Shown here piece after piece: positions 4,839 through 64,000 of a stretch of DNA of 64,000 nucleotides (position 1 is the first letter of the stretch; each line of letters begins with the position of its first letter). The notes below the pieces were generated by a model, which saw only the letters and a list, made by a program, of their open reading frames with translations, was not told the DNA's origin and searched no databases. Source of the stretch: an uncultured Gammaproteobacteria bacterium (GTDB lineage Bacteria; Patescibacteriota; Microgenomatia; Levybacterales; UBA12049); contig OZ246394.1 of assembly GCA_965230895.1 (NCBI GenBank), positions 980,668 through 1,044,667 on the forward strand, given 5' to 3'. The position numbers were made by a program, and so were the translations under genes.

Positions 4839-4839
4839 A

Positions 4840-7626: not shown

Positions 7627-7706
7627 ATGTGTTTGTCATTTGAAGGAATGACGTTTAGCAATTTATAATAGCACATTGCAGCCTCAATTGAAACAGTAGT
7701 TTCTGC

Positions 7707-8963
7707 CTATTTTAGAGGAACAATTTTGTCTTTACCCATGTACTTTTGTAAGACTTGTGGGATCAATACTGAGCCATCTTCTTGCTGGAAATTTTCAAGG
7801 ATTGCAGCAATTGGACGATTCATAGAGAACGCTGTACCGTTAAGAACATTGAGATATTTTCTCTGATCGCCATCTTGATATCGCATGTTTAAGCGTCGAG
7901 ATTGGAAGTCGGTGACGGTAGATGTTGATGTAACTTCTCGATACTTCTCTTGCGAAGGAAACCATGCTTCAATATCATACTTTCGCGCAGCATTAAATCC
8001 AAGATCACCTGTACAGATATAAAGAACTTGATAAGGCAAACCTAGATCCTGGAAAAACTTTTCTTCAAGTGAAAGCATATATTCATGTTCGCGATCATCT
8101 TCACCTTCCGCAACAAATGAAACCATTTCTACTTTATTGAACTGATGAACACGGAAAATTCCTTTGGTATCTTTTCCATAGCTTCCTGCTTCTCTTCTAA
8201 AGCATGAGGAATAACTGACGTATCTTCGAGGTAAATCTTTTTTCTGCAACACATCATTCATATGAAGCGGCACAACGGATTGCTCAGATGTCCCTACCAA
8301 ATAAAATCCATCTTTATCAAGTTCAAAGATATTATCCTGCTCCCCCATTGCTGTATAACCAAGTCCTTCCATAATTTCTTTTTTCACTAATACTGGTGGA
8401 GTTACCGGGGTGAATCCCTCTTTAATTAAGGTATCAAAAGCAAATTGTCGCAAAGCATTTTCTAAAAGTGCACCATCACCCAATAAATAGTTGAATCGAG
8501 CGCCACTTACAACTGCGGCTTGCTTAACATCAATGATTCCTAATGCTTCACCAAGCTGGAGATGATCTTTTGGTTTGAATGAGAACTTTGGAGGTTCACC
8601 AACTGTTTTCATTACTTCGTTTTCGGAATCGTCTTTGCCAACTTTGACATCAGGTTTTGATGGATTTGGGATACTCTTGAGGATCTGTTTGAGTTGGAGA
8701 TCAACTTCTTGCAAAGCATTTTCTTTCACATCTAATGCTTCTTTCACTTTTTTGCCTTTTTCTACTTGTTCTGGAGTTGGTTTACCTGTAATGCTTTTGG
8801 CAATTGCGTTGCGGTCCTCACGGAGTTTTTGGACTTCTTTTGCAATTGATTGTGATTGTTCATCGAGTTTCAAAAGGGCTTCAGTATCGACTGTTACTCC
8901 TTTTGCTTGTGAAGCTTCTTTAATTACTTGAGGGTTTTGGCGAATACGATTAATGTCTAACAT
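7707..8963 (-). CDS. serS: Seryl-tRNA synthetase
   Basis: 418 aa; N-terminal coiled-coil (MLDINRIRQNP...) plus class II core motifs; typical SerRS length. Confidence 0.9.
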   Translation of the reverse strand: MLDINRIRQNPQVIKEASQAKGVTVDTEALLKLDEQSQSIAKEVQKLREDRNAIAKSITGKPTPEQVEKGKKVKEALDVKENALQEVDLQLKQILKSIPNPSKPDVKVGKDDSENEVMKTVGEPPKFSFKPKDHLQLGEALGIIDVKQAAVVSGARFNYLLGDGALLENALRQFAFDTLIKEGFTPVTPPVLVKKEIMEGLGYTAMGEQDNIFELDKDGFYLVGTSEQSVVPLHMNDVLQKKDLPRRYVSYSSCFRREAGSYGKDTKGIFRVHQFNKVEMVSFVAEGEDDREHEYMLSLEEKFFQDLGLPYQVLYICTGDLGFNAARKYDIEAWFPSQEKYREVTSTSTVTDFQSRRLNMRYQDGDQRKYLNVLNGTAFSMNRPIAAILENFQQEDGSVLIPQVLQKYMGKDKIVPLK

Positions 8964-9046
8964 AGTTTTGTCTAGAATCCTGAAACCAGTTCAGGATGAC
9001 GATAATTGGAATTATACTTCTTTTTGGGAAGCTGTGCAACGAAGGA

Positions 9047-9403
9047 CTATTTGCGGGAAGTTGTTTTTCTCTTAGCTGCTTTTGCTGCACTTGCGATCTT
9101 TGCTTTTGCAAACTTTGCTGCTTTCTTTGATTTCGCTGAAACGTTCTTTGGAGCTTCCTTTACTGCGTCTGAAGCAACATGTTTTGTAAGCTGTGACTTC
9201 ATACGAGCTGCTTTGTTTGCATTAAGGATATTGTGCTTTACTGCTTTATCAACAGCACTGAAAGCTTCACTTACTGACTTTGCTTTTTTATCAGTTTCAG
9301 CAATTTTGATAAGCTTTTTGAAGACTTCTTTAACTTTCTTATTACGAGCTGTTCGAACTTTGTCCTGCTTTAATTTTTTCTTTGCGTGTTTTAATAACGG
9401 CAT
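9047..9403 (-). CDS. rpsT: 30S ribosomal protein S20 with Lys/Ala-rich C-terminal tail
   Basis: 118 aa; MPLLKHAKKKLKQDKVRTARNK matches the S20 N-terminus; extended KA-rich tail. Confidence 0.8.
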   Translation of the reverse strand: MPLLKHAKKKLKQDKVRTARNKKVKEVFKKLIKIAETDKKAKSVSEAFSAVDKAVKHNILNANKAARMKSQLTKHVASDAVKEAPKNVSAKSKKAAKFAKAKIASAAKAAKRKTTSRK

Positions 9404-9522
9404 TTCGTAATTTTAGCATGTTATGGCTAAAAAAACAACAATCACAACAATATTGCAAAAAAACAAAACAGAGAACTTCCAATCTTATTTCAGGACGACT
9501 ATAATAGTACAGTACTAGAATT

Positions 9523-11193
9523 ATGAGAAGCGGATTTTTATCCAAAAGCCTCGATCTTCTAACTCGCCGACAAACAAATATTCTTTCGGCCGCGTTCGTG
9601 ATCATGGTAACAGTTATTATTTCCCAGCTATTGGGATTAGTAAGGCAGCGCCTTTTAGTAGGTATTTTTGGAGCATCGAATGAACTTGGAATCTATCTTT
9701 ATGCCACGCAATTACCAGATACGCTGTTCCAATTAACTATTGCAGCTGCATTATCCTCAGCCTTCATCCCTGTCTTTTCTGATTATCTTGCCAAAGGCCG
9801 AGAGCAAGAAGCTCATAAAATGGCTTCGACATTACTTTCTTTAGGATTCGCAATATTCACCGTACTATCAATACTTATGGCAATATTTGCCCGAGATATT
9901 CTACAGATATTTAATCTTGGATCAAATTTTTCCCCACATGATATGGACCTTATGGCAAATATGATGCGTATCATTATCTTTGGACAACTTCTTTTTATTG
10001 TCGGAACATTCTTCACAGCACTTTTGCAATCATATAATCATTTCTTTATCCCTGGAATTGCAGCTGCGCTTTACAACCTTGGCATTATCATTGGCGTTAT
10101 ATCATTCTCAAGCAGCTTGGGTATTTACTCAACAACGGTCGGTGTTCTTTTGGGAGGATTTATTTTCATACTTGTTCAAATACCACTCGCACGAAAAATT
10201 GGTTTCAGATTTAAACCGTCTATCGCTTATATCAAATCGGATGGTGTTAAAAAAATTGGGAAGCTTATGTGGCCACGGACGATTTCTGTGGTTCTTTTCC
10301 AGTTAGGGACTGTCGCAATCGGGTCATTTATCTCTTTCCTTTCCGATCCAGGGCGTATGAATGTTATTTTTGATTTTGCAAAGACATTGGCATTTGCTCC
10401 TGTTGCGCTTTTCGGACAGACGATTGCGCAGGCTGCTTTCCCTGTCCTTTCGAGAGAGAAAGATAAACCAGCAGAATTTAAAGAGACGTTTATTAATAGT
10501 TTTAATCAAATGCTTTATTTGGTTTTGCCTGTTTCTGTTTTAATTTTGGTATTGAGAATTCCTGTTGTTCGGTTGGTTTTTGGAGCAAGTAAATTTGACT
10601 GGCCAGCGACAGTTTTGACGGGACAAACGCTTGCATTCTTCAGTATCTCAATTTTTGCACAAGCTTTAATTACATTGGTTCTACGAGCTTTTTATGCACT
10701 ACATGATACAAAGATTCCACTTATTGTCGGTGCAATTTCAACAGTAGTATTAATTGCTGCATCTTATTCATTTATCGTTGTTTTCGGATGGGGCGTCGAG
10801 AGTTTGGGAATCGCATTTTCTATCGCAAGTATTTTACAGCTTATTATTTTGTTCCTTATTCTTGAGAAAAAAGTTGGTGGATTTAATAAACTACCACTTC
10901 TTAGTTCTTGGGCGAAATTCTTTATCTCATCTTTCCTCACCGCTTTCGCTCTGTATATCCCAATTAAACTTTTGGACCAATTAGTATTTGATACCACAAG
11001 AACTATCAATTTGATTATCTTAACTGGTATTTCAAGTCTTCTTGGTCTTGCTCTATACCTCTTCCTCACATGGTTCTTTGATGTGAAAGAAGCAAAAGCA
11101 TATGTCCTTATGGCAAAGAAGATTGGAAATTGGAAAGATATCCTCAAGAAGTCCCAAGAATTATTGGGAATGGGCACCGGGAAAATGAATTAA
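9523..11193 (+). CDS. murJ: Lipid II flippase MurJ (MviN)
   Basis: 556 aa polytopic membrane protein; N-terminal region (ISQLLGLVRQRLLVGIFGAS...LYATQLPDTLF) matches the MurJ/MviN family. Confidence 0.85.
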   Translation: MRSGFLSKSLDLLTRRQTNILSAAFVIMVTVIISQLLGLVRQRLLVGIFGASNELGIYLYATQLPDTLFQLTIAAALSSAFIPVFSDYLAKGREQEAHKMASTLLSLGFAIFTVLSILMAIFARDILQIFNLGSNFSPHDMDLMANMMRIIIFGQLLFIVGTFFTALLQSYNHFFIPGIAAALYNLGIIIGVISFSSSLGIYSTTVGVLLGGFIFILVQIPLARKIGFRFKPSIAYIKSDGVKKIGKLMWPRTISVVLFQLGTVAIGSFISFLSDPGRMNVIFDFAKTLAFAPVALFGQTIAQAAFPVLSREKDKPAEFKETFINSFNQMLYLVLPVSVLILVLRIPVVRLVFGASKFDWPATVLTGQTLAFFSISIFAQALITLVLRAFYALHDTKIPLIVGAISTVVLIAASYSFIVVFGWGVESLGIAFSIASILQLIILFLILEKKVGGFNKLPLLSSWAKFFISSFLTAFALYIPIKLLDQLVFDTTRTINLIILTGISSLLGLALYLFLTWFFDVKEAKAYVLMAKKIGNWKDILKKSQELLGMGTGKMN

Positions 11194-11567
11194 GCCGCTT
11201 TCCGTCGACCCTTTGCATTTTGAATTGCCTCTCTCAGATTAACAATTACAGCTTCAGTTGACAATCCACCTTCCAATCGAAGTCGCACGTGATTTCGTTC
11301 ATGTCCATTATCTACGGTCGCATATCCCCAGTGAGGCATATGCTCAACAGTAACTTTTGATTTTCCTATTTGATATTTATTGGGTATATCTGGACCGACG
11401 TGACTATGAGCGAGGACATTGGTCGGTCTTCCCATCTCCATAAGTGTTCCGACAACTGCCAATCCAATTTCCCAATGATCGATTCGTACATCAGATGGTT
11501 TTTTTGCCGAAGCAGCAATCTTTTCATGCGTAAGTCCTCGTACTTTTCTTTCAGTCATAAAAGGCAT
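11190..11567 (-). CDS. Peptidase M15-like (LAS-family zinc peptidase; VanY/CwlK-type D,D- or L,D-peptidase), start uncertain
   Basis: LAHSHVGPD and VEHMPHWGY resemble the H-x(3-6)-D and E-x-x-H/WH motifs of M15 peptidases. The longest ORF starts at 11645, but that 5' end coincides with a strong intrinsic terminator for groEL (11619..11650), so Met27 (11567) or Met30 is used here; Met1 would add a hydrophobic anchor. Confidence 0.35.
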   Translation of the reverse strand: MPFMTERKVRGLTHEKIAASAKKPSDVRIDHWEIGLAVVGTLMEMGRPTNVLAHSHVGPDIPNKYQIGKSKVTVEHMPHWGYATVDNGHERNHVRLRLEGGLSTEAVIVNLREAIQNAKGRRKAA

Positions 11568-11618
11568 TATACATGAATAAAGATTGATTACATGACATAA
11601 ACCAAACATTTTTACCAA

Positions 11619-11650
11619 TAAAAAACCCGCCATCCAGCGGGTCATTTTTC
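11619..11650 (-). terminator. Intrinsic terminator downstream of groEL (hairpin ACCCGC/GCGGGT flanked by A-run and T-run, potentially bidirectional)
   Basis: Minus strand reads GACCCGC-TGGATG-GCGGGT followed by TTTTTATT, 30-60 nt after the groEL stop; on the plus strand the same hairpin is followed by TTTTT. Confidence 0.55.
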
Positions 11651-11677
11651 AACTCTCAATTCGCAACTTTCAATTCT

Positions 11678-13351
<1,674 letters not shown>

Positions 13352-44119: not shown

Positions 44120-45451
44120 TTAGACTTCTGAAGTAAAAAGTTTGTGATTATCCGCAGTAATTTTGATATTCTTGGCTTCACCAGCGATAATCATTCTTGC
44201 TGCCTTTCTGCACATCATGTTTACAAGTCGTTCAAGACCACGAATTCCAGGATCGTATCCTAATGGACGAATGATAATTTCCCAAACAGGTTCATCAATA
44301 ACGAGCTGTTCAGGCTTTAAACCAATAAGTTTACTTACTTTTGGAAATACATAATCACGTCCAATGTGCATTTTTTCTTCATCATTATAAGAAGGCATTT
44401 GGATAATTTCCAAACGGTCGATAACAGCAGTTGAAATAGCAGTCGTATTGTTTGCTGTAGCTACGAATAGAGAGTTTGAAAGATTAAATGGATAGTCCAC
44501 ATAATGATCTGTAAACGCATTGTTTTGTCCAGGATCCAAAAGTTCAATTAAAACACCCATGATGTCAGCACGAGCTGCTTCGGTCACACGATCTAATTCA
44601 TCCATGAGAAGCACTGGATTTTTTGTACCTGCATGCACAAGTCTTTTGATAATTTGTCCAGGTTCTGCATCTGGGAAGAAACGTGATTGTCCACGGAGCA
44701 CACGGGAATCAGCCATACCTCCAAAAGGAATACGCTCAAATTGCCTTCCAAGAGCTTCAGCGATTGACATCGCAAATGTTGTTTTACCTGTACCTGCCAA
44801 TCCTACAAAACAAAGCACTGGAGATTGTGTAGCAAAATCAGGTCCGTTATTTTGGAGATTAAGCATAATTGAGGCGATATACTCAAGCATACGATTCTTC
44901 AATATTTCCAATCCGAAGTGATCACGGTCTAAGACTTCCTTTGCTTTCTTTAAATCGAGGATATCGTCACTTTTACTAATCCAAGGCAATCCAGTTACCC
45001 AATTAATATAACGCTGAGTTGATTCATATTCCATGATATACGTGGAACTCATAAACCCAGATCCAGAACGGATTAATGCCAATCGAGCAATACGATCTTC
45101 AAGAATCTTTCGAAGTTCATCAGGTACTGGTGCTTTTTCCACTTTTTCTCCAAGCGCTCGAATCTGATCGTATGATTCACCTTTGCTATTGGTGGAGGTT
45201 GGTTGTGTGATCGTCCCACCACTCGCAGCAGCTTGAGTCACATTTGCGGTTTGTGCAGCGCTTGCTGCTTGCACTTGTACTGCTTCCACTGCTTCTTGTT
45301 GTTGCGTGATTTGACTACTTGGTAATGCAGCAATTGGCTGATCACCATTATTGGTCGAATTATCACCATTAACTCCGCCTCCAGTGGTAGGAGTTTGCGA
45401 TTGTGGTGGTGCAGCAGGAGCTGAACCTGGTGGTTGAGCAGTAGGGTCCAT
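44120..45451 (-). CDS. Lon-like AAA+ ATPase lacking the S16 peptidase domain; disordered ~90-aa N-terminus
   Basis: 443 aa. After a Pro/Gln/Ala/Thr-rich N-terminus it tracks the Lon linker-helix and AAA+ module (YINWVTGLPW; Walker A GLAGTGKTT; FERIPFGGMADSRVLRGQSRFF; Walker B LLMDELDR; sensor-2 region). The ORF stops (ITADNHKLFTSEV) where the Lon peptidase domain would begin, and rnj follows 50 nt later. Confidence 0.7.
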   Translation of the reverse strand: MDPTAQPPGSAPAAPPQSQTPTTGGGVNGDNSTNNGDQPIAALPSSQITQQQEAVEAVQVQAASAAQTANVTQAAASGGTITQPTSTNSKGESYDQIRALGEKVEKAPVPDELRKILEDRIARLALIRSGSGFMSSTYIMEYESTQRYINWVTGLPWISKSDDILDLKKAKEVLDRDHFGLEILKNRMLEYIASIMLNLQNNGPDFATQSPVLCFVGLAGTGKTTFAMSIAEALGRQFERIPFGGMADSRVLRGQSRFFPDAEPGQIIKRLVHAGTKNPVLLMDELDRVTEAARADIMGVLIELLDPGQNNAFTDHYVDYPFNLSNSLFVATANNTTAISTAVIDRLEIIQMPSYNDEEKMHIGRDYVFPKVSKLIGLKPEQLVIDEPVWEIIIRPLGYDPGIRGLERLVNMMCRKAARMIIAGEAKNIKITADNHKLFTSEV

Positions 45452-52735: not shown

Positions 52736-55700
52736 TTATGGAGCAACTTCGTTGGAGGTAATCGACTGTATACGAACTAACTCTGGTAGATTAACGACAA
52801 AATCGAGCCGCTGAACAATTTGAAGGGAAGGATTATCAAGATTATTACCGCATAGATCTCTATTATTCTGAAGCTTTCCACCTGATTGTGCTGCATTAAC
52901 GATGAGTACACCTGCAATGTTTAAGCGTAGATCTGCACAGGTGTTTGTACTTTGCATAATAAATGATTTATCTGTACTAAAGATTCCTGCAAGGTTTGTA
53001 GTACTGGAGCTTGGGGCAGACCCAACGGTTGGAGGGACGATAATATTTCCGGAGACGGAGAAAACGACTGTGGAACCGACAGGAGTAACAATATTCCCTT
53101 TAATAGTCAGGTTGCCATTAATAATAAACACATAATGTTGATTCGCCGGGAAAGTAAATCCATTCAAGGAGACGTCACCTGTTGCAGTATACGTTCCTTG
53201 TGGTAGCGTAACTGGCAACGTGCAATTCGAAAGAGTACAAATCGTTGATAGATTTGTTGGAGTCGTATCAGAGGCTTTTACTTTCGCACTGAGATAATCA
53301 TACGATGAGAAAATACCTCCGCTATTTGATGGCACATAAACTTCAGGATATGAATAACCTCCAACAACTTGATTTGTGCTCGATGCTTGACCTACTCCAA
53401 ATTCAGCCTGAGAATCACCAGTAAAGATTACGCCAGGTGTACTACAAGTTGGATTTGAGGTCATCATTGTTTTACCTTCTGGGACTGGATTATCAATACC
53501 ATTATCCATACGTAACTCTCCGCATTGTACCTGCATCCACGGATTGAAGTTTGTGAGATAGTAATTTAAGTTCGAAATATCACCCGGAAGCGTTGTTACA
53601 GTACCGGTCCTACTTTCTTCATTTCCAAATGTATTCATATTATTTAATCCTGAAGCATATTCAGCTTCGATCCAATCTGCAGAACGAGCAACTCTCGCCA
53701 TACGTACTTCGTCAATTTTTCCATCAAAGCACCATGCATAATCAGCCGAGCACGCACCATTGATATCAGCTTGTCCAATTGATGAAGCCTGTGTACCATA
53801 GTCACGTAAAGTCCCGGTATAAGTATTCCCATTGCGTAAAGCTCCATCTACATAGAGGTTCTCCCGCTTTGTTGCCGTATCAACGGTCTCAGCAACGTGG
53901 CGCCAGGTTCCAGAAGTATAAGGAGAAGCGCTTGCACCATAAGCAGTACCTGAAGTGTTATAAACAGTTGAAAACCAGTTACTTCCACTCGCAAAACGAA
54001 GTCCAGTATGCTGCCCTCTTTTTCCTACAACGAAATAATCGTTAAGTCCTGAGCTATTTGGATTTGTATCGGGATTTGCCCAAGCTGTATACGTGAAATT
54101 AGCTTCTGTCAAATCCTGCAGGCTTGAGGAATTAGGAATTGTTATTTTATCGTTTCCGGATGTTCCTCCGTCAAAGTTTTGAGCATTTCCAATTCTTCCA
54201 GCATTTGTACTTAAAGTGAAACCGCTTGCTGTTCCATTATTTGCATTCGAGGTTGAATCAATAACAGTTGTTCCAGACGTTTCAGCCATATGGTAAACGG
54301 CGGCATACCCATTGCTCCAGACATTAGCCTTATTTTGTCCATCAGCTGCATTAGAATTATTGTAGTACATCCAAATATAGTCAGCGTTTGAATTTGCATC
54401 AATTTGAGGAACTTTAACCCAAAGATCCGACGTTCCGTTTTCATCCCATTTTTCAATTTCATGTGCCAATAACGTCACTCCATCAGCGTCTACAAAGCGA
54501 ACATCCTGACCTAGGTTCTGAGTTTTTGCGTAATCCACATTTGTGCTATTCAACGAAACTCTCAAGGGGAAATTGACTAAGCTTTCTGCTGATGCTGTGT
54601 TATTGATAGTTATCTTTTTTCGGGATAACCATTTCGGATCCCACCAGTCTATTGTAGGTTCTTCAGCTGAGATACCATCACTCGTGTAAACTTCAATTCC
54701 AGAAAGATTAAAATCCCCTCCTGTTTGGAAAAAGGACAGACTTCCATCTGAAACTGTTACATGATATGGTCCAAGCTTTTTCCAGGTTCCTGCGTTACCA
54801 CTTTGCAAATTAGACTCCTTTGCTACCCCTTCAAAACCAATATTATATGTGGTCGATGTAGTATCTTCCCAAGTATAAACATATACTGAATACTCTCCAT
54901 TGGTTATGGGAATTTCTGCGTTCAGTTGGATATTGCCGCCTCTCCATATTGAAGATCGTAGCATTTGTGCCTTATTTGCACTAACTGAAGGACTTAACGT
55001 AATTCCTTGGTTCTGGAAATTTGTACCATTTGTTGTAATTCCTGCTGCAGATTGAGCTTGAAATGTTGTACCATCTACGTCTAATTGTGGTCCGTTAAAG
55101 TTCACTGCTTTTATAAGAGTATTCGCTGGCAGCGTTGAACTTGGTGTTCCTTCATACAATTGCACATCGTCGATCCAAACTGTTCCAGTTGCAGTTGCAA
55201 CTTGGAATCCTACAAGAGCATTATCTGTTGTTTCTGTTGGCTGGAATGTATATGTATATTGCTGCCAACTACTCGTAAGCGATGCAGTCTTGCGAGTGTA
55301 AAGAGTATACGGATCATTCCCGTTTTGGACAATCGCATCCATAGTCCTGTTTCCCGAGGCCTTTGCCCAAAAGCTTAATGTATAGGTTTTGCCTGCAGAA
55401 ACTGGGACGCCGTAGGTTGCAAGTTCTAAATCTTGAAGATTGCTCGTCGTCGTAGTAACGACTATTTGCGCAGAATATGCTCCATGTGTGCTTGTTGCAT
55501 TTGTAGCTGTAAATGTACCATTTGCGCTGCCTTTTTTTTGTAAGAACCAATCCGTGGTCCCCAATTCATAACTCCAATTCTGGACAAGATTCTGCCGACT
55601 GCCTGGAGTAGGAGTCACCGTAGCAGCATCGATCAATTCCATATCATCAACATAGAAACTGTTCCCAGAGACAGCTGAATCCTGGACGATATAATAATCA

Positions 55701-56185
55701 ATACTATCAACCGCTGAAGTAACTGTTACCGTAGCAGTAATTTTTTGCCAATCAGTAGTCAGATTGACGATAGGACCAGAAGTCATCGTTTTGTTACTAC
55801 CTGTCCATTGCCTCAAGATGATATGAATCGGTTTCCCAACAGCAGTTGTTGATCGAACCCAAGCTGTTGCGGTATATGTTTTCCCTACCGGAGGATTGGT
55901 AATTGGATCTTGGTTATCATCTATTGTGTAGTAGTCTCCAACTGATCTTGTTACCAGACAAGATGCAGACCCACTATGTGCGACATTTGTCACCCGTGTT
56001 AACGTTCCCTGATACGAATTCCATGAAGAAGTATTTGTTTCGCACCCGGGATTTGGGATCAGATTGGCATAAGCAATATTATGAATCGAACTTAATGAAA
56101 AAATTACCCCAGAAATAATAAGCATAAAAGCTAGTACTGTGAAGATGATTGAATGATGTTTTTTTGAAAGAAATATGCTTTTCAT
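52736..56185 (-). CDS. Large secreted surface protein: two CBM_4_9-like carbohydrate-binding modules, DUF2341 and LamG-like domains
   Basis: Start taken at the ATG at 56185 (MKSIFLSKKHHSIIFTVLAFMLI..., a signal anchor) rather than the TTG at 56236. Two repeats with NPGCE/NWSYE...W...VDDxxL CBM-like patterns, a DUF2341-like region (WWDPKWLSRKKITINN) and a concanavalin/LamG-like region. Ends 2-53 nt upstream of nusA. Confidence 0.6.
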   Translation of the reverse strand: MKSIFLSKKHHSIIFTVLAFMLIISGVIFSLSSIHNIAYANLIPNPGCETNTSSWNSYQGTLTRVTNVAHSGSASCLVTRSVGDYYTIDDNQDPITNPPVGKTYTATAWVRSTTAVGKPIHIILRQWTGSNKTMTSGPIVNLTTDWQKITATVTVTSAVDSIDYYIVQDSAVSGNSFYVDDMELIDAATVTPTPGSRQNLVQNWSYELGTTDWFLQKKGSANGTFTATNATSTHGAYSAQIVVTTTTSNLQDLELATYGVPVSAGKTYTLSFWAKASGNRTMDAIVQNGNDPYTLYTRKTASLTSSWQQYTYTFQPTETTDNALVGFQVATATGTVWIDDVQLYEGTPSSTLPANTLIKAVNFNGPQLDVDGTTFQAQSAAGITTNGTNFQNQGITLSPSVSANKAQMLRSSIWRGGNIQLNAEIPITNGEYSVYVYTWEDTTSTTYNIGFEGVAKESNLQSGNAGTWKKLGPYHVTVSDGSLSFFQTGGDFNLSGIEVYTSDGISAEEPTIDWWDPKWLSRKKITINNTASAESLVNFPLRVSLNSTNVDYAKTQNLGQDVRFVDADGVTLLAHEIEKWDENGTSDLWVKVPQIDANSNADYIWMYYNNSNAADGQNKANVWSNGYAAVYHMAETSGTTVIDSTSNANNGTASGFTLSTNAGRIGNAQNFDGGTSGNDKITIPNSSSLQDLTEANFTYTAWANPDTNPNSSGLNDYFVVGKRGQHTGLRFASGSNWFSTVYNTSGTAYGASASPYTSGTWRHVAETVDTATKRENLYVDGALRNGNTYTGTLRDYGTQASSIGQADINGACSADYAWCFDGKIDEVRMARVARSADWIEAEYASGLNNMNTFGNEESRTGTVTTLPGDISNLNYYLTNFNPWMQVQCGELRMDNGIDNPVPEGKTMMTSNPTCSTPGVIFTGDSQAEFGVGQASSTNQVVGGYSYPEVYVPSNSGGIFSSYDYLSAKVKASDTTPTNLSTICTLSNCTLPVTLPQGTYTATGDVSLNGFTFPANQHYVFIINGNLTIKGNIVTPVGSTVVFSVSGNIIVPPTVGSAPSSSTTNLAGIFSTDKSFIMQSTNTCADLRLNIAGVLIVNAAQSGGKLQNNRDLCGNNLDNPSLQIVQRLDFVVNLPELVRIQSITSNEVAP

Positions 56186-56186
56186 A

Positions 56187-59132
56187 TTATTCACACTTCG
56201 CTCCAGTTGCGCCATTTGTATTACATTCTGGGCCAAGTGTCACTTGAAATGATGGAGGAGGTCCATTGAGCGGATATGTCATCCTGTATCCAGTCGTCAG
56301 AGGAGAAACAAGGGAAACAGTATACGTTCCAGGAGGCAAAGCTCCACTAGAATACGATCCGTTTGAAGTTTCAACAGTTTTCCTCGTCGGTCCTGAGAAG
56401 AAAATAAGCATAGGATCAGTAATAAGTGTGTCTGGTGGCGCGAGATTAAGATCCTTATCAAAGTCTTTAACAATATTTCCTGAGATAGTAAATCCTGTCG
56501 CATTCCCAAAATCGATATTATCGTAGGAATTTCCAGATTCGACACTTAAATTATATGCTTTTGTATCAGTTGTCTGATACCAACCCGCCTGCACAACTTC
56601 TGTGAATGTAAAATCCTTCGTACATAATCCTGTAAATGAGAACTGGCCTGCTGAATTCGTCTTGGCGGTGATAGGAACGTCCAAATCTTCTGCTGAAGCC
56701 TGAACTGTCCAGTTATACAAGGGAAGGTCGCCTCCATCGTATACTTTATTTGTATTCTTGTCATTGAAGATCATACCGTTAACGACACCGGTTCCAATAT
56801 CTTCTGCAATACTTTGATAAATTGATTCAAGTGTTGAAGTAGATGGAGAATTGTAGAATCTTCCACCGTTCGTATCAGCAAGCTGTTGCATAAAGATAGG
56901 ATCAAACGAGCCGGATCCTTGTCCAATACCAATAACTTGATAGATAATGTTTTGTGCATTTACACCGTTAATTGTGGCGGTCATAGCAGCATTTTCAGCA
57001 GCATCAATAGAGACATTTCCCCCATTTGAACCAATTATTTGATTTGTAGCACCATCTGTCATAACAATGACAACTTTTTGAGCATTTCTTGTAGATCTAC
57101 TAAGCTCTCCATTCCCTAAAACAATTCCGCACTCTACACATGTACCGCCTCCATTATCTGGGACTGCACTAATAGCGTTTTTAATAGCGGATGTATTCGT
57201 AGTAAGTGGTTGAGAAACACGGGTATTCACATCATTTGGATAATTATTACTCCCTGAGAAAACAGTCAATCCATATTGTGCATTTTTGACATGAGAAGAG
57301 ACAATATCGATGAAGCTACTTGCTGCCCGCTTTGCGGCAAGCATTTTTGTCATACCTGTTGTTGGATCTGTTTCTTGCATACTTCCAGAATCATCAAATA
57401 CAAGCATAATATCGACACCATTTGCACTACATGATCCTCCGACCTTTGTAGTCGTACTTTCGACAATACCAAAGTTAACCGTCTTATCTGTCGAAAGCGG
57501 AAAATTAAGCGAATTTGCAGTAGTACTTCGATAACCGGTTGGCGTATCAACCCGAATTGTATAGTCACCGCTCGCCTGATCAGCAAAGAGATAGCCTCCA
57601 CTAACATCTGTTGTTTTTGTAACAGGTGTCGTCTTCGTCAATGTAACTGTTGCTCCCTGATAAAGCGGTTCACTCGGATCTAATAACCCATTCTTATTTA
57701 AATCTATAAATACTTTTCCGGTAACGTTATAAAGTGTTACCATTCCGAATTCAACTGTTTTCGCAGGCGTTCCTCCAGCAGTACCTGCAGTAGAAGGAGG
57801 AGCAAAGGTAATTGTCTGAGTGTTTGTTGTTGTACTCTTTTTCTTGGCAGGAAGTGTATATGTGATTGTATATGTTCCTGCAAAAAGATTTGGGAAAGAG
57901 AAATTTCCGGAGTTATCTGTTACAGCAGAACCTGTAGCAGTACCCGAGAGTACAATTGTTACCCCAGGTTCCACAGAGTCGCCATTACCTCGTTTTCCAT
58001 CTTCATTTTTATCTTCAAAAATCGCTCCTGAGATAGTAAAAAGAGGTACAATTCCGAAATTGAGTGTTCTATTTGGCCCTACTGTAAAATTCGCTTCCGA
58101 TGGCGTTGATGCCTGATAATTAGCGGGCAAAGGGAATTCCGCGTTATAGGTACCAGCAAAAAGCTGTGCTGTATAGCTCCCATCTGAGGCACTTCGCGCA
58201 GTTACGGTAGTAGGACCAGTAAATGTAATTGTGCCTCCAGTGTAATTACCATCACCATTATCGTCGACACTGTTTCTGTTATTGTCTAAAAATATCATTC
58301 CGGAAACTGTGTAATATTGTGCAACTCCAAAGCTTACCGACTGATTCGAGTTTAGCGTCACAGATCTTGGATTTGTATTTGTAGCCTTATATCCCCCTGG
58401 AACAGCGATTGTCACAGTATAGGTTCCAGCAAACAATGCCGGGAAAGTGAAATCTCCATTTTCATCGGTTGTTGTACTTGTTGATGTTGGACCTGACACA
58501 GAAACAGTTATGCCACTATTTCCTGATTCACCAGCATCCTTTGTTGTATCAATATCTGTATCTGTAAATACATTTCCTGAAAGAGTATGGACAAAACCAA
58601 TACCAAAATTAACAGTTTTATTGGATGTTAGAGAAACAGATTGTGGATTTGTCGAAGTATTTTTATAACCATTTGGGACAGTAATCGTAACTGTATAATC
58701 ACCCCTCGGAAGAGTCACAGAATATCCTCCCGTTAAACTTGTCGTTGTTGTTGTAGACGAGGCTCCAGTAATTGTAACAGTAACGCCACTCACCCCAGCT
58801 TCAAGTGTATCTTTATTTCCATTTGCATTTGCATCAACATAAATAGTTCCTGAAAGAACTGCCGTTGGAATAGGTGTAGGAGTCGGAGTGGATGTCGGAG
58901 GAGCAGGAGTTGGAGTGCTTGATGGTGTCGGAGATGCAACTACCTGTGCAATCAAATCACCAAGTACTCCTTGCTGCTTTTTTTCTTGCTGAGGCATAAT
59001 TAACTGCTCAATTTGTTGCAGTTTTTCTGGGTAAAAGATACTTGCAGCACTTGTAATAATTCCTACAAAAACAATCGCGACAAAAACTGTATTGATAATT
59101 TTAAAAACATTTAATCGAGGTTTTTTTAACAT
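56187..59132 (-). CDS. Large surface adhesin-like protein: N-terminal TM anchor, Pro/Thr linker, multiple SdrD-B/CnaB-type Ig-like repeats and a von Willebrand factor A domain
   Basis: 981 aa. Repeated about 100-aa units of the form GxxxxDxNxNGxxD...GYxxTxxN...NFG; vWA with a MIDAS-like DDSGSM...TDG; N-terminal TM helix FVAIVFVGIITSAASIF. Confidence 0.65.
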   Translation of the reverse strand: MLKKPRLNVFKIINTVFVAIVFVGIITSAASIFYPEKLQQIEQLIMPQQEKKQQGVLGDLIAQVVASPTPSSTPTPAPPTSTPTPTPIPTAVLSGTIYVDANANGNKDTLEAGVSGVTVTITGASSTTTTTSLTGGYSVTLPRGDYTVTITVPNGYKNTSTNPQSVSLTSNKTVNFGIGFVHTLSGNVFTDTDIDTTKDAGESGNSGITVSVSGPTSTSTTTDENGDFTFPALFAGTYTVTIAVPGGYKATNTNPRSVTLNSNQSVSFGVAQYYTVSGMIFLDNNRNSVDDNGDGNYTGGTITFTGPTTVTARSASDGSYTAQLFAGTYNAEFPLPANYQASTPSEANFTVGPNRTLNFGIVPLFTISGAIFEDKNEDGKRGNGDSVEPGVTIVLSGTATGSAVTDNSGNFSFPNLFAGTYTITYTLPAKKKSTTTNTQTITFAPPSTAGTAGGTPAKTVEFGMVTLYNVTGKVFIDLNKNGLLDPSEPLYQGATVTLTKTTPVTKTTDVSGGYLFADQASGDYTIRVDTPTGYRSTTANSLNFPLSTDKTVNFGIVESTTTKVGGSCSANGVDIMLVFDDSGSMQETDPTTGMTKMLAAKRAASSFIDIVSSHVKNAQYGLTVFSGSNNYPNDVNTRVSQPLTTNTSAIKNAISAVPDNGGGTCVECGIVLGNGELSRSTRNAQKVVIVMTDGATNQIIGSNGGNVSIDAAENAAMTATINGVNAQNIIYQVIGIGQGSGSFDPIFMQQLADTNGGRFYNSPSTSTLESIYQSIAEDIGTGVVNGMIFNDKNTNKVYDGGDLPLYNWTVQASAEDLDVPITAKTNSAGQFSFTGLCTKDFTFTEVVQAGWYQTTDTKAYNLSVESGNSYDNIDFGNATGFTISGNIVKDFDKDLNLAPPDTLITDPMLIFFSGPTRKTVETSNGSYSSGALPPGTYTVSLVSPLTTGYRMTYPLNGPPPSFQVTLGPECNTNGATGAKCE

Positions 59133-59226: not shown

Positions 59227-61635
59227 TCAGGAGACATCAGCATGAAGTGCGCCTGTACCATCAATAGTAAAGTTAACTTTTTTACCACGATCTATTTCCT
59301 TCGTCAAACGTTTCTGCGCAATAATATCTTCAACTGTATCTTGTAAATATCGTCGTAAAGGACGTGCCCCAAAGTCTTTATCAAAGCCTTCTTGCGTAAT
59401 CTTTTCAATGACGGCGTCGTCAAAAGTTAATGTAATATCCTGTGCCGCCAATGACTTTGTTAATTGAGCTAATAATAACTTTGTTACAGCAACGACTTGC
59501 TCTGGACCAAGCGGATTAAAGGTCACGACATCATCAAAACGATTGAGTAGCTCTGGTTTGAAAATACCTTTTGTTTGTAACTGCTCCAGCAACCTTTGCT
59601 CAAATTTCTTATCAATCGCAGTACCTTTCTCAACTTCTTCACGAATAAATTCTGAACCGGCATTTGACGTAGCGATAATAATTGCATTGCGGAATGATAC
59701 TGTTGTTCCTTTATTATCAGTCAATCGACCATCATCGAGAACTTGCAAGAAAAGATTATGGATTGCAGGATTTGCTTTTTCAAATTCATCGAGCAAAATA
59801 AGTGATGCTGGATTATCATGAATTTTATCAGTCAGTTGGCCTCGGTCTTCTCCCTCGCCAGGTGCAGCTCCCAATAATCGCTTTAATCCATTCTCGTCAG
59901 TATATTCACTCATATCCAAACGAATCATGTGCTGCTCTCCTCCAAAGTAAAATTGTGCTAAAGCTTTCGCAGTCTCTGTCTTACCGACACCCGTCGGACC
60001 TAAAAAGAGAAAAGAAATAGGACGTTCACTGGTCGTCATACCAGAGCGGATACGTCGCATTGCTTCACTAATCGCTTTCACCGCGGTATCCTGGGCAATA
60101 ACTCGCTCATGCAGCTTGTCTTCGAGATGTAAGAGCAGATTAATTTCTTGTCCTGTTGGGAGTGCAATTGAAACATGGCTTGTTGCTTCGACTTTTTTAA
60201 CAACATCTTGTTCGAGCACCATCTTACGATGTGACTTTTCAAATGATGGACGTTCTTTTTCCTGAGAAACAGAATTAGCCACAGTTTCAAGCAAAGAGAC
60301 TGCACTTCCTGGTAAAACTTGATCCTGAAAAAAACGATTAGCAAGTTCAACAGCACTCAAAACTGCACGATAACTGATAATTACTCCATAGGTATTTTCT
60401 ATTTTAGCTGCTTCTCCTAATACCATCTGGATCGCATTAGCAGGCTCAACCGGTTTTAGTTCAACAACGGCAAAGGCCTCTTTTAAAGGATTTTTTTCCA
60501 TATACGTTTTGTAACTTCCAGTTGTCATTGTGGCGACCATGGGAATATTTCCACTTTTTAGGTATGGCAAAAGCGCACCTGAAAGATCCAGTCCATATGA
60601 TGATGCACCTAATATATTTTGAAAATCAGGGATATAGACAAATACATCATTTGCATGAGAGATCTCGGCAATAATATTTTGTAGTCGTAATTCAAGGTCA
60701 TTACGATTTCCAGCACCAGCTGTTAGCGCTCCGACCAGTAATTGGAAAATTCGCTTATGATTAAGATAGCCGCCTAGATTTCCAGTGAAACTATGATACG
60801 CAAGCGCTCGGACTAAGTTCTCTTTTCCTGATCCGATATCGCCGACGATAAGCACATTATTATTTTCAATTTTCGTAAGCCCTTCCAAAACCATTTTAAA
60901 TTCTGACTCTCGCCCACCAATATGTGGTTCTGTTCTTAAAGCGTAGTTTGTAAATAATGCAGTATATTTTTTTGTTTCAGGAGTCCAACCTGAGGTAAGC
61001 GCTTCACCAATTCCTCCACCTGCAAAATTAATTCGTACCGGTTTTGGATTTTCTTCATCTGGTAAGTCGAGACGAACCCAATAGAGGATATTGTATAAGT
61101 CTGTTATCTTGAGCTGTTTGGCAAATAATATCTTTGTATCCTTTTCAATTAAGAAGAGATATGCCACAAGAACATCCAAGGTGGTTACATACTTTGCTTT
61201 AAATGTCTGAGCTGTTTGAAATGCACTTTGTGCAAGTAATTTTTTATCAACTTCCTGCACTACAAGATCTTTACTGGTGATATTAGCTTTTTGCAGGACA
61301 AGTTTCACTTGAGGGTAAGTCATAAGGCGCTTAATTAATGACGTTGCGTTAGGTTCTGTTATAAATCCATACAATGCAGCCATAGTAAATGATTCATACA
61401 TATTCTCTTCTTTATTTTTGGAGACTTCAATTTTGGGAACTGCACGGCTTATCTTGTAATGAAAGAATACCTCAAACATTACAAACAGATTAAAAAGAAA
61501 AACACTAAAGTTGGCTGGAATATCATTTGATACTTGATACAGTATTAAAGACAATAGCATCGCACAAGCGACAAGTCTGATGCTTCGCACGAGTGCGGTT
61601 CTATAAAATCGGTATAGTCGGACAGATAATTCCAT
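59227..61635 (-). CDS. Membrane-anchored Hsp100/Clp-family AAA+ protein with degenerate first nucleotide-binding domain
   Basis: 802 aa. Two N-terminal hydrophobic helices. D1 Walker A GDIGSGKEN (consensus GxPGVGKT) and Walker B VFVYIPDF (DE lost). D2 is intact (GPTGVGKTE, ILLDEFEKA, GARPLRR). Confidence 0.7.
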   Translation of the reverse strand: MELSVRLYRFYRTALVRSIRLVACAMLLSLILYQVSNDIPANFSVFLFNLFVMFEVFFHYKISRAVPKIEVSKNKEENMYESFTMAALYGFITEPNATSLIKRLMTYPQVKLVLQKANITSKDLVVQEVDKKLLAQSAFQTAQTFKAKYVTTLDVLVAYLFLIEKDTKILFAKQLKITDLYNILYWVRLDLPDEENPKPVRINFAGGGIGEALTSGWTPETKKYTALFTNYALRTEPHIGGRESEFKMVLEGLTKIENNNVLIVGDIGSGKENLVRALAYHSFTGNLGGYLNHKRIFQLLVGALTAGAGNRNDLELRLQNIIAEISHANDVFVYIPDFQNILGASSYGLDLSGALLPYLKSGNIPMVATMTTGSYKTYMEKNPLKEAFAVVELKPVEPANAIQMVLGEAAKIENTYGVIISYRAVLSAVELANRFFQDQVLPGSAVSLLETVANSVSQEKERPSFEKSHRKMVLEQDVVKKVEATSHVSIALPTGQEINLLLHLEDKLHERVIAQDTAVKAISEAMRRIRSGMTTSERPISFLFLGPTGVGKTETAKALAQFYFGGEQHMIRLDMSEYTDENGLKRLLGAAPGEGEDRGQLTDKIHDNPASLILLDEFEKANPAIHNLFLQVLDDGRLTDNKGTTVSFRNAIIIATSNAGSEFIREEVEKGTAIDKKFEQRLLEQLQTKGIFKPELLNRFDDVVTFNPLGPEQVVAVTKLLLAQLTKSLAAQDITLTFDDAVIEKITQEGFDKDFGARPLRRYLQDTVEDIIAQKRLTKEIDRGKKVNFTIDGTGALHADVS

Positions 61636-61642
61636 AATCTAA

Positions 61643-62020
61643 TTACAAAAATAATAACCAAATCGTTGCAAACGGCAAGAATATATAACCCAGAAACACA
61701 GTAATTTCAAAGAGAAGTAATAGGAAAAGCATTAATACATCAGCAAGAATAAGCCATGTTTTGACAAAGATACCCATAGCCCTTGAAAAACCGACTAATC
61801 CTTGTCTGTATTCATTTTTTATAGGTTGAAAGTACGTCTTTATAAAAAGTGGTAATGAAAATAGATGAAAAAATGAGCTATTCAGGGAAGCAAAGAACTG
61901 GAGTAAGGAAAGTGGACTTTCATAAAACCAAAATTTTAAAAATAGAATCGGTACATTTAAATAGCTTCTATGCCAAACAAAATGAGGTAAGTGAACCTGG
62001 ACAGGTTTTGTATTTTTCAT
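61643..62020 (-). CDS. Small polytopic membrane protein (125 aa)
   Basis: Highly hydrophobic, Phe/Leu-rich; ends 7 nt before the start of the membrane-anchored Clp-like gene. Confidence 0.35.
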   Translation of the reverse strand: MKNTKPVQVHLPHFVWHRSYLNVPILFLKFWFYESPLSLLQFFASLNSSFFHLFSLPLFIKTYFQPIKNEYRQGLVGFSRAMGIFVKTWLILADVLMLFLLLLFEITVFLGYIFLPFATIWLLFL

Positions 62021-62129: not shown

Positions 62130-64000
62130 TTATTCTATTTCTTCGTGGCGGGATTGTGGCGCGACATAATTTACTGGCCGGAAGTTTGATGGAATTCCAG
62201 AGTAATTGTATGCTGACTGAGATGCCATTGCTGCACCATTGGACGCTACACCGTTTGCAGGTGGAGGCGTACTATCTACAGCACCATTTGGAAGACTTGT
62301 TGGAGCTGGAGTCTGGAAAACAGGTCCGGTATTCTCCGCTGGTGCATTTGTTGGCGCTTGCGGTGTAGTTGGTGCTGCTGCAGGATTATTAACAGCAGCT
62401 CCACCTGGTGCAGGAGCAACTGGTTCAGGCGCTGTTGGAGTATTTGCCGCTTGTCCATCAGTTGCTTGTGTCGGATTCTGATTAGGAGCCTGTGGAGCGC
62501 CACCTGGAACATTTTGTGGTTGATTAGCGTCTTGTCCCTCTGAAGGTTTTGACTCAGCGCTTTCAGCCGGCTTCACATCACTTGAATCAGATGATTGTCC
62601 GCCTTGTTCTGCTGAACCTTGATCATCAGGAGCAATATTCTTAACTCCTGCTGCTTCAAGTACCATAATTGCAATTTCATCCTTTTGTTGAGCTGCAGCA
62701 ACCATATCAGCAACCATCTTTTCTAATTCTTCATATTTTATAGTATCTTTGACACTAAGTACTGCTGCTGCTAATGCGTTACCTTTTTGACTTGCTTCAT
62801 TAAGCTTCGTTTGAACAGCAGTATACTTCTCTTTGTCTGCTGGTAATTCAGCTGTAACTGGATTATTAATTAACAGTAACGTTTTCTTAAAGTTACGCAG
62901 TGGTTGATGAGCCAGCTCTTCTTCAATTATCTTTAATATCTCAGTTGCTAATGGATCACCAGATTCTTTTGCAGCTTGCAACTCTTTTTGAATTCCAGCA
63001 ATGTCATCATCAGATGTGATATCAGTAATCGCAAGAATCTTTGTAGCTAAAGGATTACCTTCAGTCTTTGCTTTTTGCATCTTCTCGTAGACAACATTAA
63101 ATTGATCTTTAACTTCAGGGTCAGCGAGATACAATGGATTAATCAATTGTTTTAATACATTCTTAAACTTGGTAACAGGCTCTTCTTCATGTGCTGCCTC
63201 TGCTTCTTCGACAAGCTCACTATTTACTGCCGCGAGAATATCCTCAGCAAGGCTATCTTCATTTTCCTTTGCAACCTTCAATTCTGCCATCAAATCTTCA
63301 ATAGCTGCATCGGTTGTTGTATCGTTCACAGCAAGAATCTTTGCTGCCAAAGCATTTCCACGCTGATTTTCCATAGTCAGTTTCTCATGAAGTTCCATGA
63401 AACGAACCTTCTTATTACTATCTTTAATATTATCTGGATGAATGATCTCAAGAAGGATTTGCTTAAGCTTCAATGAGGCTTGGATCTGCTGTGCCATACT
63501 ATTTGCAAGTTCAATAATTTCGAAAGCTAGATTGTCACCTTTAGCTTTTGCTTCTTCAATTTGCTTACGTAAGGTTTGGATTTGCTTCAAATCTGTTGAA
63601 ACTGTTACTTCAAGGATGCTGCTTGCCATTGCATTCTTTTCAGTACGAGCTTGCGTTAATTTGTCGTGGAGGACAATAAAGCGTGATTTATCTGTAGTAC
63701 TTGTTATATTGTCTGGATTTGCCAAGTTAATCAAAACTGTTCGGAACTGCTCATCTGTAAGTGGAGCGACTGTTGCACCCGCACCACCCTTATTGAAGAC
63801 AAACTCATTGGTATTATCACTGTAATCGATCACAATTGTATCTCCAGCAACAAACTTCTTTGAAATAATTGCTAACGCAATGGGATTTTCAATAGCAGTT
63901 TGAACGAGTCTTCGGAGTGGTCGAGCACCATAGACTGGGTCATAACCATCTTTTGCCAATTGATTAACAGCTTTTTCAGTGATTTGAAGGTTAAAGCCTT
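62130..64000 (-). CDS. ClpB/ClpC-like AAA+ chaperone (5' end outside the window) with a ~540-aa C-terminal extension of four ~95-aa repeats plus a Pro/Ala/Gln/Asn-rich tail
   Basis: The frame is open to the window edge. The region near 63900-64000 encodes the D2 small domain (GYDPVYGARPLRRLVQTAIENP). Then come four degenerate repeats sharing F..LH.KL...T.GN.LA..IL.V.D.T.D..I..L..EL..AK..GD.LA.EIL, then a low-complexity tail. Confidence 0.7.
   Translation of the reverse strand, partial: GFNLQITEKAVNQLAKDGYDPVYGARPLRRLVQTAIENPIALAIISKKFVAGDTIVIDYSDNTNEFVFNKGGAGATVAPLTDEQFRTVLINLANPDNITSTTDKSRFIVLHDKLTQARTEKNAMASSILEVTVSTDLKQIQTLRKQIEEAKAKGDNLAFEIIELANSMAQQIQASLKLKQILLEIIHPDNIKDSNKKVRFMELHEKLTMENQRGNALAAKILAVNDTTTDAAIEDLMAELKVAKENEDSLAEDILAAVNSELVEEAEAAHEEEPVTKFKNVLKQLINPLYLADPEVKDQFNVVYEKMQKAKTEGNPLATKILAITDITSDDDIAGIQKELQAAKESGDPLATEILKIIEEELAHQPLRNFKKTLLLINNPVTAELPADKEKYTAVQTKLNEASQKGNALAAAVLSVKDTIKYEELEKMVADMVAAAQQKDEIAIMVLEAAGVKNIAPDDQGSAEQGGQSSDSSDVKPAESAESKPSEGQDANQPQNVPGGAPQAPNQNPTQATDGQAANTPTAPEPVAPAPGGAAVNNPAAAPTTPQAPTNAPAENTGPVFQTPAPTSLPNGAVDSTPPPANGVASNGAAMASQSAYNYSGIPSNFRPVNYVAPQSRHEEIE

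Follow-up and report, generated by a model that had tools for sequence, protein, structure and literature searches.

An Hsp100/Clp protein of Levybacteria with a C-terminal array of helical repeats shared with a neighbouring VirB6-like membrane protein

Introduction

What is a large array of repeats doing at the end of a Clp-type unfoldase? The question is raised by the last gene in a stretch of 64,000 nucleotides (here called the window; positions 980,668 to 1,044,667 of contig OZ246394.1, assembly GCA_965230895.1, GTDB lineage Patescibacteriota, Levybacterales), which encodes an Hsp100/Clp protein, P0239. A first-pass annotation, made from the window sequence alone, had described a ClpB-like chaperone whose canonical end is followed by about 540 amino acids of degenerate repeats and low-complexity sequence. 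Hsp100 unfoldases draw their specificity from accessory domains and partners, namely N-domains, M-domains and adaptors. Here we show that P0239 is an Hsp100 protein with a novel folded repeat extension, that this extension is a real and well-conserved feature, and that clp is linked in a conserved gene order to a membrane module resembling parts of a type IV secretion system (T4SS), a linkage that was unexpected.

Results

The extension and its coordinates

The stop codon of the P0239 gene is located at 62130-62132 on the minus strand. The last 622 codons lie inside the window and the gene runs about 2.4 kb past its edge; the TTG at 63959, given as a start in the list of open reading frames (ORFs), is internal to the gene. 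The complete protein, encoded on the same NCBI contig of 1.61 Mb, has 1,427 amino acids; at its C-terminus it matches the window translation exactly, as does the sequence encoded by Logan contig L001. The part of the gene inside the window is made up as follows (fragment residues are numbered from the window edge; E-values for the repeats are independent E-values, i-E, of a hidden Markov model (HMM) of the repeat):

62130-64000, minus strand: 3´ end of the Hsp100/Clp gene (P0239), reading frame open from the stop to the window edge
63828..64000, minus strand: end of the D2-small domain, with GARPLRR; fragment residues 1-57, P0239 residues 806-862, identical to P0239
63747..63827, minus strand: last strand of the canonical Clp C-terminus and short linker (…DYSDNTNEFVFNKGGAGATVAPLTDEQ), kept in orthologs; the ClpB alignment stops here, at query residue 866
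63471..63746, minus strand: repeat 1; fragment 85-176, P0239 889-977; i-E 2e-26; helical in the AlphaFold2 (AF2) model
63171..63470, minus strand: repeat 2, then acidic linker EEAEAAHEEEPVT; fragment 177-276, P0239 982-1070; i-E 8e-27
62895..63170, minus strand: repeat 3, the one modelled singly; fragment 277-368, P0239 1082-1170; i-E 3e-28
62634..62894, minus strand: repeat 4; fragment 369-455, P0239 1174-1262; i-E 2e-22
62214..62633, minus strand: low-complexity tail rich in A/P/S/N/Q/G, presumed disordered from its composition; poorly alignable between orthologs
62133..62213, minus strand: conserved C-terminal peptide AYNYSGIPSNFRPVNYVAPQSRHEEIE with an acidic end, kept in the closest clade

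The first 57 residues of the fragment match the Pfam family ClpB_D2-small (PF10431; model positions 26-81 of 81, E = 6.5e-17), and the D2 and C-terminal region could be aligned to residues 690-850 of E. coli ClpB (857 amino acids). Since this alignment ends at ClpB residue 850 and query residue 866, the extension measures about 554 amino acids; its presence was described correctly in the first-pass annotation, its length slightly underestimated.

The four repeat units were cut from the sequence following the D2-small domain and were later placed by the repeat HMM. Self-BLAST of the fragment gave no off-diagonal high-scoring segment pairs, and Smith-Waterman local alignments were compared with shuffled sequences instead. 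All six pairwise alignments, with identities of 23-38%, exceeded the scores of 300 shuffles by 10-23 standard deviations, and together with the HMM matches (i-E 2e-22 to 3e-28) this bears out the four degenerate repeats originally proposed and the expectation that they align significantly to each other. At the DNA level, Tandem Repeats Finder reported nothing and the only notable direct repeat was one 61-nucleotide pair with 70% identity. Because the repeats are so diverged in their DNA, the duplications are taken to be old, as had been suggested from the sequence at first sight; the four-repeat array is also present in 67 of 120 relatives.

Both ends of the protein are of low complexity. The last 167 residues (about 150 had been estimated) contain A30, P28, S16, N15, Q14 and G14, and between orthologs the sequence of this tail varies while its composition is kept. 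A tail of 55-250 amino acids is present in essentially all full-length relatives. It ends with the motif …Y[VI][AS]PQ[ST]xQEE[IV]E in about 35 relatives from the closest clade, and other clades have terminal motifs of their own. At the N-terminus, the conserved peptide MFGNIFNQKK is followed by about 135 A/P/Q-rich and presumably disordered amino acids. The consensus of this peptide in relatives is M[FL]G[NSKT][IL]F; among the loci scanned it is confined to the start of this Clp gene, and it may be a short docking motif.

Relatives encode motor and extension as one protein

A search with the extension only yielded 5 matches, and the fusion seemed to be very rare; a search with the full-length protein revealed this to be a sensitivity artefact. 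With the full-length query, about 100 protein clusters of 1,100-1,660 amino acids cover the extension, all as single ORFs, which answers the question whether orthologs keep it. Carriers have 1 to 6 repeats and belong to Levybacteria and other Patescibacteria. The ortholog P0238 in L003, the sole genome locus found by single-protein scan (1.32-Mb contig CAZDOJ010000001.1, a short-read-style assembly), is a single ORF of 1,431 amino acids (7565-11860) and 91% identical over the extension; the ortholog P0121 in L004 is a single ORF of 1,444 amino acids.

Only one relative speaks for two genes. The Clp protein of L002 is the sole split copy, annotated as 942 and 445 amino acids, but the contig appears from its name to be a nanopore assembly, the break falls within an A5 homopolymer, and deletion of one A restores a continuous ORF of 1,391 amino acids. 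That a sequencing or assembly error joined a separate gene to clp, or that the repeats resemble each other by chance, is so improbable that we set it aside: uninterrupted ORFs encode P0239, P0238, P0121 and about 100 further clusters, in at least three independent assemblies, which excludes the frameshift or missed stop considered in the first-pass annotation, and the similarity between the repeats is far above that of shuffled sequences.

The L002 locus (7125-11338, on a 156-kb contig) contains at least two frameshifts in its Clp gene, the second of them close to the N-terminus: the frame that encodes MFGNIFNQKK is not that of the called start. Its VirB6-like gene is called as two parts of 381 and 911 amino acids, probably reflecting one more frameshift.

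Among the 120 best relatives, four repeats are the most frequent state (67 proteins), followed by three (20) and two (8); one repeat was found in 1, five in 2 and six in 1, and 20 have no repeat at all. The remaining protein is P0338, the split L002 product, with a partial repeat only. Relatives with four repeats are 57-77% identical overall to P0239.

The repeat is predicted to be a five-helix domain

AF2 was used to model repeat 3 alone from an alignment of 50 sequences, resulting in five helices with a predicted local distance difference test score (pLDDT) of 95.2 and a predicted template modelling score of 0.82. The model of all four repeats, made from six sequences, is all-helical as well (mean pLDDT 83.3, five helices per repeat); long continuous helices join repeats 1 and 2 and repeats 3 and 4, with a break at the acidic linker between repeats 2 and 3. 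The repeat consensus is xxKxxLxxIxNP…KxxxTxLHDxLxxASQxGNxLAxxILxV…IxxLxxQLxxAKxxGDxLAxxIL. Pro12 is invariant in the family, and the pattern contains an internal helix-turn-helix half-duplication.

The searches for known families gave the following picture. Pfam, run on the fragment and on 50 single repeats, yielded scattered noise of the coiled-coil type with no family matching more than 6 of the 50, and neither tetratricopeptide repeats (TPR) nor Sel1 repeats were detected in this set. The PDB sequence search with the extension found nothing at E <= 10, a homologue search with the single-repeat alignment nothing at E <= 1e-5, and Foldseek against the PDB nothing significant for either model. 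Vinculin and talin helical bundles were the top Foldseek matches and were rejected as insignificant. The repeat of about 90 amino acids represents an undescribed domain family.

The motor is a class-I Hsp100 but not a true ClpB

With Pfam, P0239 matches Clp_N (26.5 bits, cut-off 20.7), AAA, AAA_lid_9 (E = 2.8e-25), AAA_2 (E = 2.6e-69) and ClpB_D2-small (E = 5.7e-23), and it is a class-I (two-ring) Hsp100/Clp AAA+ protein. Walker A and Walker B are intact in both D1 and D2, and so are the D2 pore loop GAPPGYVGY and the GARPLRR motif. The D1 pore loop lacks the near-universal tyrosine, seen in ClpB (AGAKYRGEFE): it reads AGASHRGEFE, with histidine at residue 365, in P0239 as well as in 119 of the 120 relatives, the pattern not being found in P0259. 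Residues 408-516 of E. coli ClpB, the M-domain, are without counterpart in the alignment with P0239. The spacing of the two Walker A motifs is 284 residues in P0239, 281-285 in 117 of the 120 relatives and 300-314 in the other three; in the E. coli ClpB sequence it is about 400. A ClpP-docking tripeptide, [IVLM]G[FLM], as expected of the ClpP partners ClpA, ClpC and ClpE, was sought in D2, in the loop that connects sensor-1 with the RPE…NR motif, and was present in none of the 119 loops examined; the loop of P0239 reads …LSTLDPKAKKTPEEFDRMF….

Family models gave scores well below their cut-offs: for ClpB, TIGR03346 scored 880.2 bits (cut-off 1,232.1) and PRK10865 741.6 bits (1,417), for ClpA, TIGR02639 scored 701.8 bits (993.15), for ClpV 660 bits were obtained (885), and for ClpG and ClpK 650 and 658 bits (1,900). 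Lacking M-domain and ClpP-docking loop, with histidine in the D1 pore loop and below every NCBIfam cut-off, the P0239 core is no true ClpB, ClpC or ClpA. The top full-length matches in the PDB were ClpB and S. aureus ClpC with nearly equal scores; for the D2 and C-terminal region E. coli ClpB was the most similar among the PDB chains. Database pipelines name these proteins merely "AAA family ATPase" or "ClpC". Of the original label "ClpB-like", the class-I Hsp100/Clp core stands, whereas the missing M-domain and the scores below the ClpB, ClpA, ClpV, ClpG and ClpK cut-offs speak against a closer assignment.

Compared with known systems, P0239 resembles ClpB and Hsp104 in having Clp_N, two AAA+ modules and D2-small, in the absence of a ClpP-docking loop and in the location of its gene beside dnaK and dnaJ. 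It differs from them in the missing M-domain coiled coil of about 110 amino acids and in the D1 pore-loop histidine. In Hsp104 the C-terminus is extended as well, by an acidic stretch whose last residues, DDLD, are bound by TPR (helical-repeat) partners (PMC5480384), but that tail is short, whereas here the extension comprises about 554 amino acids with four folded domains. ClpG and ClpK are, like P0239, Hsp100 proteins with lineage-specific extras, including a disordered C-terminal extension, and are off the canonical route via M-domain and Hsp70 (PMC8024975). However, the ClpG extension has just 20-40 residues and is Pro/Lys-rich and unstructured (PMC8024975), and besides an N1 domain ClpG possesses a short M-domain, whereas the sequence preceding Clp_N in P0239 is of low complexity without a folded N1; P0239 does not belong to this group. 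ClpA likewise has no long M-domain, and its model aligns to P0239 in one stretch (P0239 residues 140-862, model positions 4-732 of 734). ClpA and ClpC differ in their IGL/VGF tripeptide, which was not found in any of the 119 relatives, and neither a ClpC-type M-domain nor a UVR motif is present.

In a distant relative, L006 (9748-13295), Clp is called as two genes, D1 with 568 and D2 with 614 amino acids, and long low-complexity sequence is located where the M-domain would be; the call may reflect a real division of the gene or an error of assembly or reading frame.

The named relatives are assigned to "Candidatus Levybacteria", "Levyibacteriota" and "Patescibacteria group". Others are labelled Xanthomonadales, Sulfotelmatobacter or Limnocylindrales, and L003 is labelled "uncultured Gammaproteobacteria bacterium". 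Several of these labels of metagenome-assembled genomes look like mis-assignments. The Gammaproteobacteria label of L003 is probably a taxonomic mislabel, since its Clp and gene order, like its closest named relatives, point to Levybacteria or Patescibacteria.

The same domain is found in a VirB6-like protein encoded next to clp

A profile built from the extension matched only 119 proteins among 1.84 billion cluster representatives. In about 80 of these, a signal peptide comes first, the initial 370 residues include about six hydrophobic segments, and repeats begin at about residue 460. The main home of the repeat domain is the C-terminal half of polytopic membrane proteins of the VirB6/TrbL-like type, which have up to 18 repeat matches, some of them overlapping. 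The polytopic architecture is kept in 68 aligned proteins. Similarity to VirB6 itself is faint: PF04610 (TrbL/VirB6) matched 2 of 8 proteins scanned with only 18 bits (cut-off 25.9), and P0252 not at all.

In L003 the gene directly upstream of clp encodes such a protein (P0252; 1,248 amino acids, 3718-7464) with five repeat matches, and the gene order is grpE, dnaK, dnaJ, a pilin-like gene of 100 codons, P0252 and clp. The small upstream protein scored 23.6 bits with PF18895 (T4SS_pilin; cut-off 26.6) in L003, with weak or faint matches in L004 and L007, and 19.4 bits (cut-off 40) with the NCBIfam model Mbov_0395 pilin-like.

Eight loci were compared: the window together with L003, three with fused Clps of 4, 2 and 6 repeats (L004, L009 and L010, respectively), the split four-repeat copy in L002, L011 with a Clp without repeats, and L006 and L007, which were reached from distant VirB6-like proteins. 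The order pilin-like gene (about 98-128 amino acids), VirB6-like repeat protein and clp was found in all eight, and in the six whose contigs extend far enough, dnaJ immediately precedes the trio. In each locus the VirB6-like protein has 2-11 matches to the repeat HMM. The synteny is also present where the Clp has no repeats (L006, L007 and L011); thus the linkage of the genes predates the fusion, an argument of the Rosetta-stone type. The clp-VirB6-like linkage spans a deep divergence. Between Clp repeats and membrane-type repeats the best identity is about 40-45%, with no sign of recent exchange.

In their resemblance to VirB6/TrbL family proteins with long C-terminal extensions, the main repeat carriers are polytopic, have large C-terminal extensions besides the weak TrbL/VirB6 similarity, and lie downstream of a T4SS-pilin-like gene; the difference is that here the extension domain is also fused to a cytoplasmic Hsp100. 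In the flanks that we inspected, we saw neither VirB4 nor a coupling ATPase. Across Patescibacteria, T4SS components are widespread, VirB6 and VirB2-like proteins among them; the survey reporting this makes no mention of Clp and found VirB6 homologues to be scarce in Microgenomatia (PMC12102498). In the literature combining Patescibacteria with ClpB or VirB6, we found no description of this fusion or synteny.

The VirB6-like proteins contain a further conserved element. Each repeat block of about 90 amino acids is followed by a second, different domain of about 95 amino acids (…VSKEDYQAVRDMWKQNYQNL…GGFSQNEIVSYLQAKQDAAKDV), which has no Pfam match and is not part of the Clp extension; it occurs twice in P0252 and is also present in the orthologs of P0252 in L002, L004, L009 and L011. 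One P0252 repeat (residues 1015-1074) matched an L,D-transpeptidase C-terminal domain just below the cut-off (PF17969, 25.7 bits, cut-off 26.8; PRK10260, 19.5 bits). This match is probably spurious; PF17969 did not feature in the list of families hit by the 50 single repeats.

Genes downstream of clp and further observations in the window

Four genes follow clp on the same strand:

61643..62020, minus strand: membrane protein of 125 amino acids, immediately downstream, no Pfam match, paired with the next gene
59227..61635, minus strand: membrane-anchored Clp paralog of 802 amino acids; Pfam AAA_lid_9, AAA_2 and ClpB_D2-small
56187-59132, minus strand: very large predicted surface protein, one of a pair with either CBM_4_9, DUF2341 and Laminin_G_3 or five SdrD_B and VWA domains
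52736-56236, minus strand: very large predicted surface protein, the other of this pair; the listed ORFs overlap by 50 nucleotides

The 802-amino-acid paralog has two N-terminal hydrophobic helices, and its D1 is degenerate: Walker A reads GDIGSGKE, and a Walker B was not found. In D2, Walker A and Walker B are intact, and the pore loop is without tyrosine (GAAPGEGEDRGQL), for which reason the paralog is probably no threading motor. The small membrane protein (109-125 amino acids, motif …FWFYE.P…KNEYR.GLVGFS…) precedes the anchored paralog in L003, L009 and L011; L007 has the paralog alone. Together with the anchored paralog of about 800 amino acids it forms a second conserved pair, often located after clp. 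The two surface-protein ORFs have no counterpart in the syntenic stretch in L002 and L004, and therefore do not belong to the conserved module.

Elsewhere in the window, 44120-45451 (minus strand) encodes a protein of 443 amino acids with an AAA domain and a Lon-type lid, in which no Lon protease domain was detected. An Rfam scan of the window gave no match.

Discussion

A proposed docking platform for a membrane module

The repeat domain is common to the Clp and to the VirB6-like protein encoded next door, which suggests that the two proteins work together. The best single explanation we can offer, although we hold it with somewhat less than even confidence, is that the extension serves as a docking platform linking the unfoldase to the pilin-like/VirB6-like membrane module. 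The ring would be an active, ClpP-independent threading motor, and the repeat array would couple the hexamer to the module through protein-protein contacts, sharing a binding partner with the VirB6-like repeats or else attaching to the VirB6-like protein or to its own tails. In this way, the array might replace the targeting normally provided by the M-domain or by adaptors. The motor could then act at the membrane, for instance by extracting or unfolding the module's subunits or substrates or by delivering them, and in relatives without Clp-borne repeats the VirB6-like protein alone may be the platform. The first-pass annotation had conjectured an adaptor or substrate-docking platform from the extension itself; that the same domain fills the syntenic VirB6-like neighbour lends this indirect support.

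Several observations weigh against such a platform. The VirB6-like proteins have a signal peptide and six hydrophobic segments, which by parity would place their C-terminus outside, while the Clp must be cytoplasmic. The family profile of hydrophobicity and charge from which this topology was read contains a weak fifth segment and a net-positive region (K+R 14.2 vs D+E 9.8 over the 135 amino acids past the last hydrophobic segment), which would favour a cytoplasmic C-terminus of the VirB6-like protein. The number of repeats varies from 0 to 6 within the subfamily, thus they are not essential to the motor. In addition, none of the matches behind the VirB6 and pilin assignments reaches its Pfam gathering score, a VirB6-like repeat protein on the short contig L005 has no Clp gene after it, and the locus sits in a grpE-dnaK-dnaJ chaperone cluster, which would fit a pure proteostasis role.

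A possible disaggregase with a built-in targeting module

The chaperone cluster leads to the strongest alternative, which we regard as possible but less likely than the docking platform: the extension might be a built-in targeting module of a heat-shock disaggregase, in which the repeats, with or without the tails, bind aggregates as the N1 domain of ClpG does, or recruit DnaK, for instance via the acidic DnaK C-terminus. Without an M-domain, the canonical recruitment by DnaK would not be available to this Hsp100. The clp gene is located downstream of grpE-dnaK-dnaJ in L003 and L004 and downstream of dnaJ in L002, L009, L010 and L011. The M-domain, essential in ClpB as the platform for Hsp70 (PMC8129007), has been lost, and some replacement for its targeting function is therefore likely. 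Stand-alone Hsp100 disaggregases with extra domains do exist, ClpG being an example (PMC8024975). Furthermore, DnaK (L003 479-2392, L004 458-2368) has an EEVD-like acidic C-terminus, EGEVVD in L003 and EGEVVE in L004, and the neighbouring Clp proteins end with …EEIE, …EEVE or …KEEEQS; the DnaK ends and the Clp ends EEIE/EEVE resemble the EEVD/DDLD tails to which helical-repeat co-chaperones bind (PMC5480384).

However, the main home of the domain is a polytopic membrane protein and not a chaperone, and neither TPR nor Sel1 families were detected in the repeats. They are absent from 20 of the 120 closest relatives, in which the rest of the architecture is kept, as is the synteny in the three such loci that were examined. 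Moreover, the aggregate-binding domain of ClpG is N-terminal and near the pore entrance, whereas this extension is on the exit side of the ring.

A possible regulatory or architectural element

It might also be that the extension mainly serves the hexamer itself, although we consider this improbable. It could be an auto-inhibitory or assembly element, for which the C-terminal extension of Hsp104 offers an analogy; it could also act as a spacer or entropic bristle, or the terminal peptides could fold back on the repeats in cis or between subunits. Both termini are indeed long, similar in composition and of low complexity, and they end in conserved short peptides (MFGNIF and the clade-specific C-terminal motifs). 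The plastic repeat number would be compatible with such a role, and in Hsp104 the acidic C-terminal motif binds TPR proteins (PMC5480384). But a regulatory role leaves unexplained both the multiplication of the domain in the neighbouring membrane protein and the conserved synteny, and four well-folded domains under purifying selection, judging from the identity among the four-repeat relatives, exceed what a spacer needs.

Meaning for Patescibacteria

P0239 carries a large, folded and repeated C-terminal module on a motor without the Hsp70-docking M-domain and without the ClpP loop. One could go further and imagine an unrecognised envelope machine of Levybacteria, composed of the pilin-like protein, the VirB6-like repeat protein and the M-domain-less Hsp100, perhaps together with the anchored Clp paralog. 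A Clp-type unfoldase would here take the place of a VirB4/VirD4-type ATPase and power assembly, extraction or export through a VirB6-like channel, with the domain of about 90 amino acids as the docking interface. Such a machine is a speculative and, as a whole, unlikely proposal.

The highly diverged VirB6-like proteins described here are flagged in Microgenomates, the group in which VirB6 was found to be scarce (PMC12102498). The envelope machines of Patescibacteria are thought to underlie their host-dependent lifestyle and remain poorly understood. The shared domain and the gene order conserved across Levybacteria tie a cytoplasmic unfoldase to a T4SS-like membrane module in a way that can be tested.

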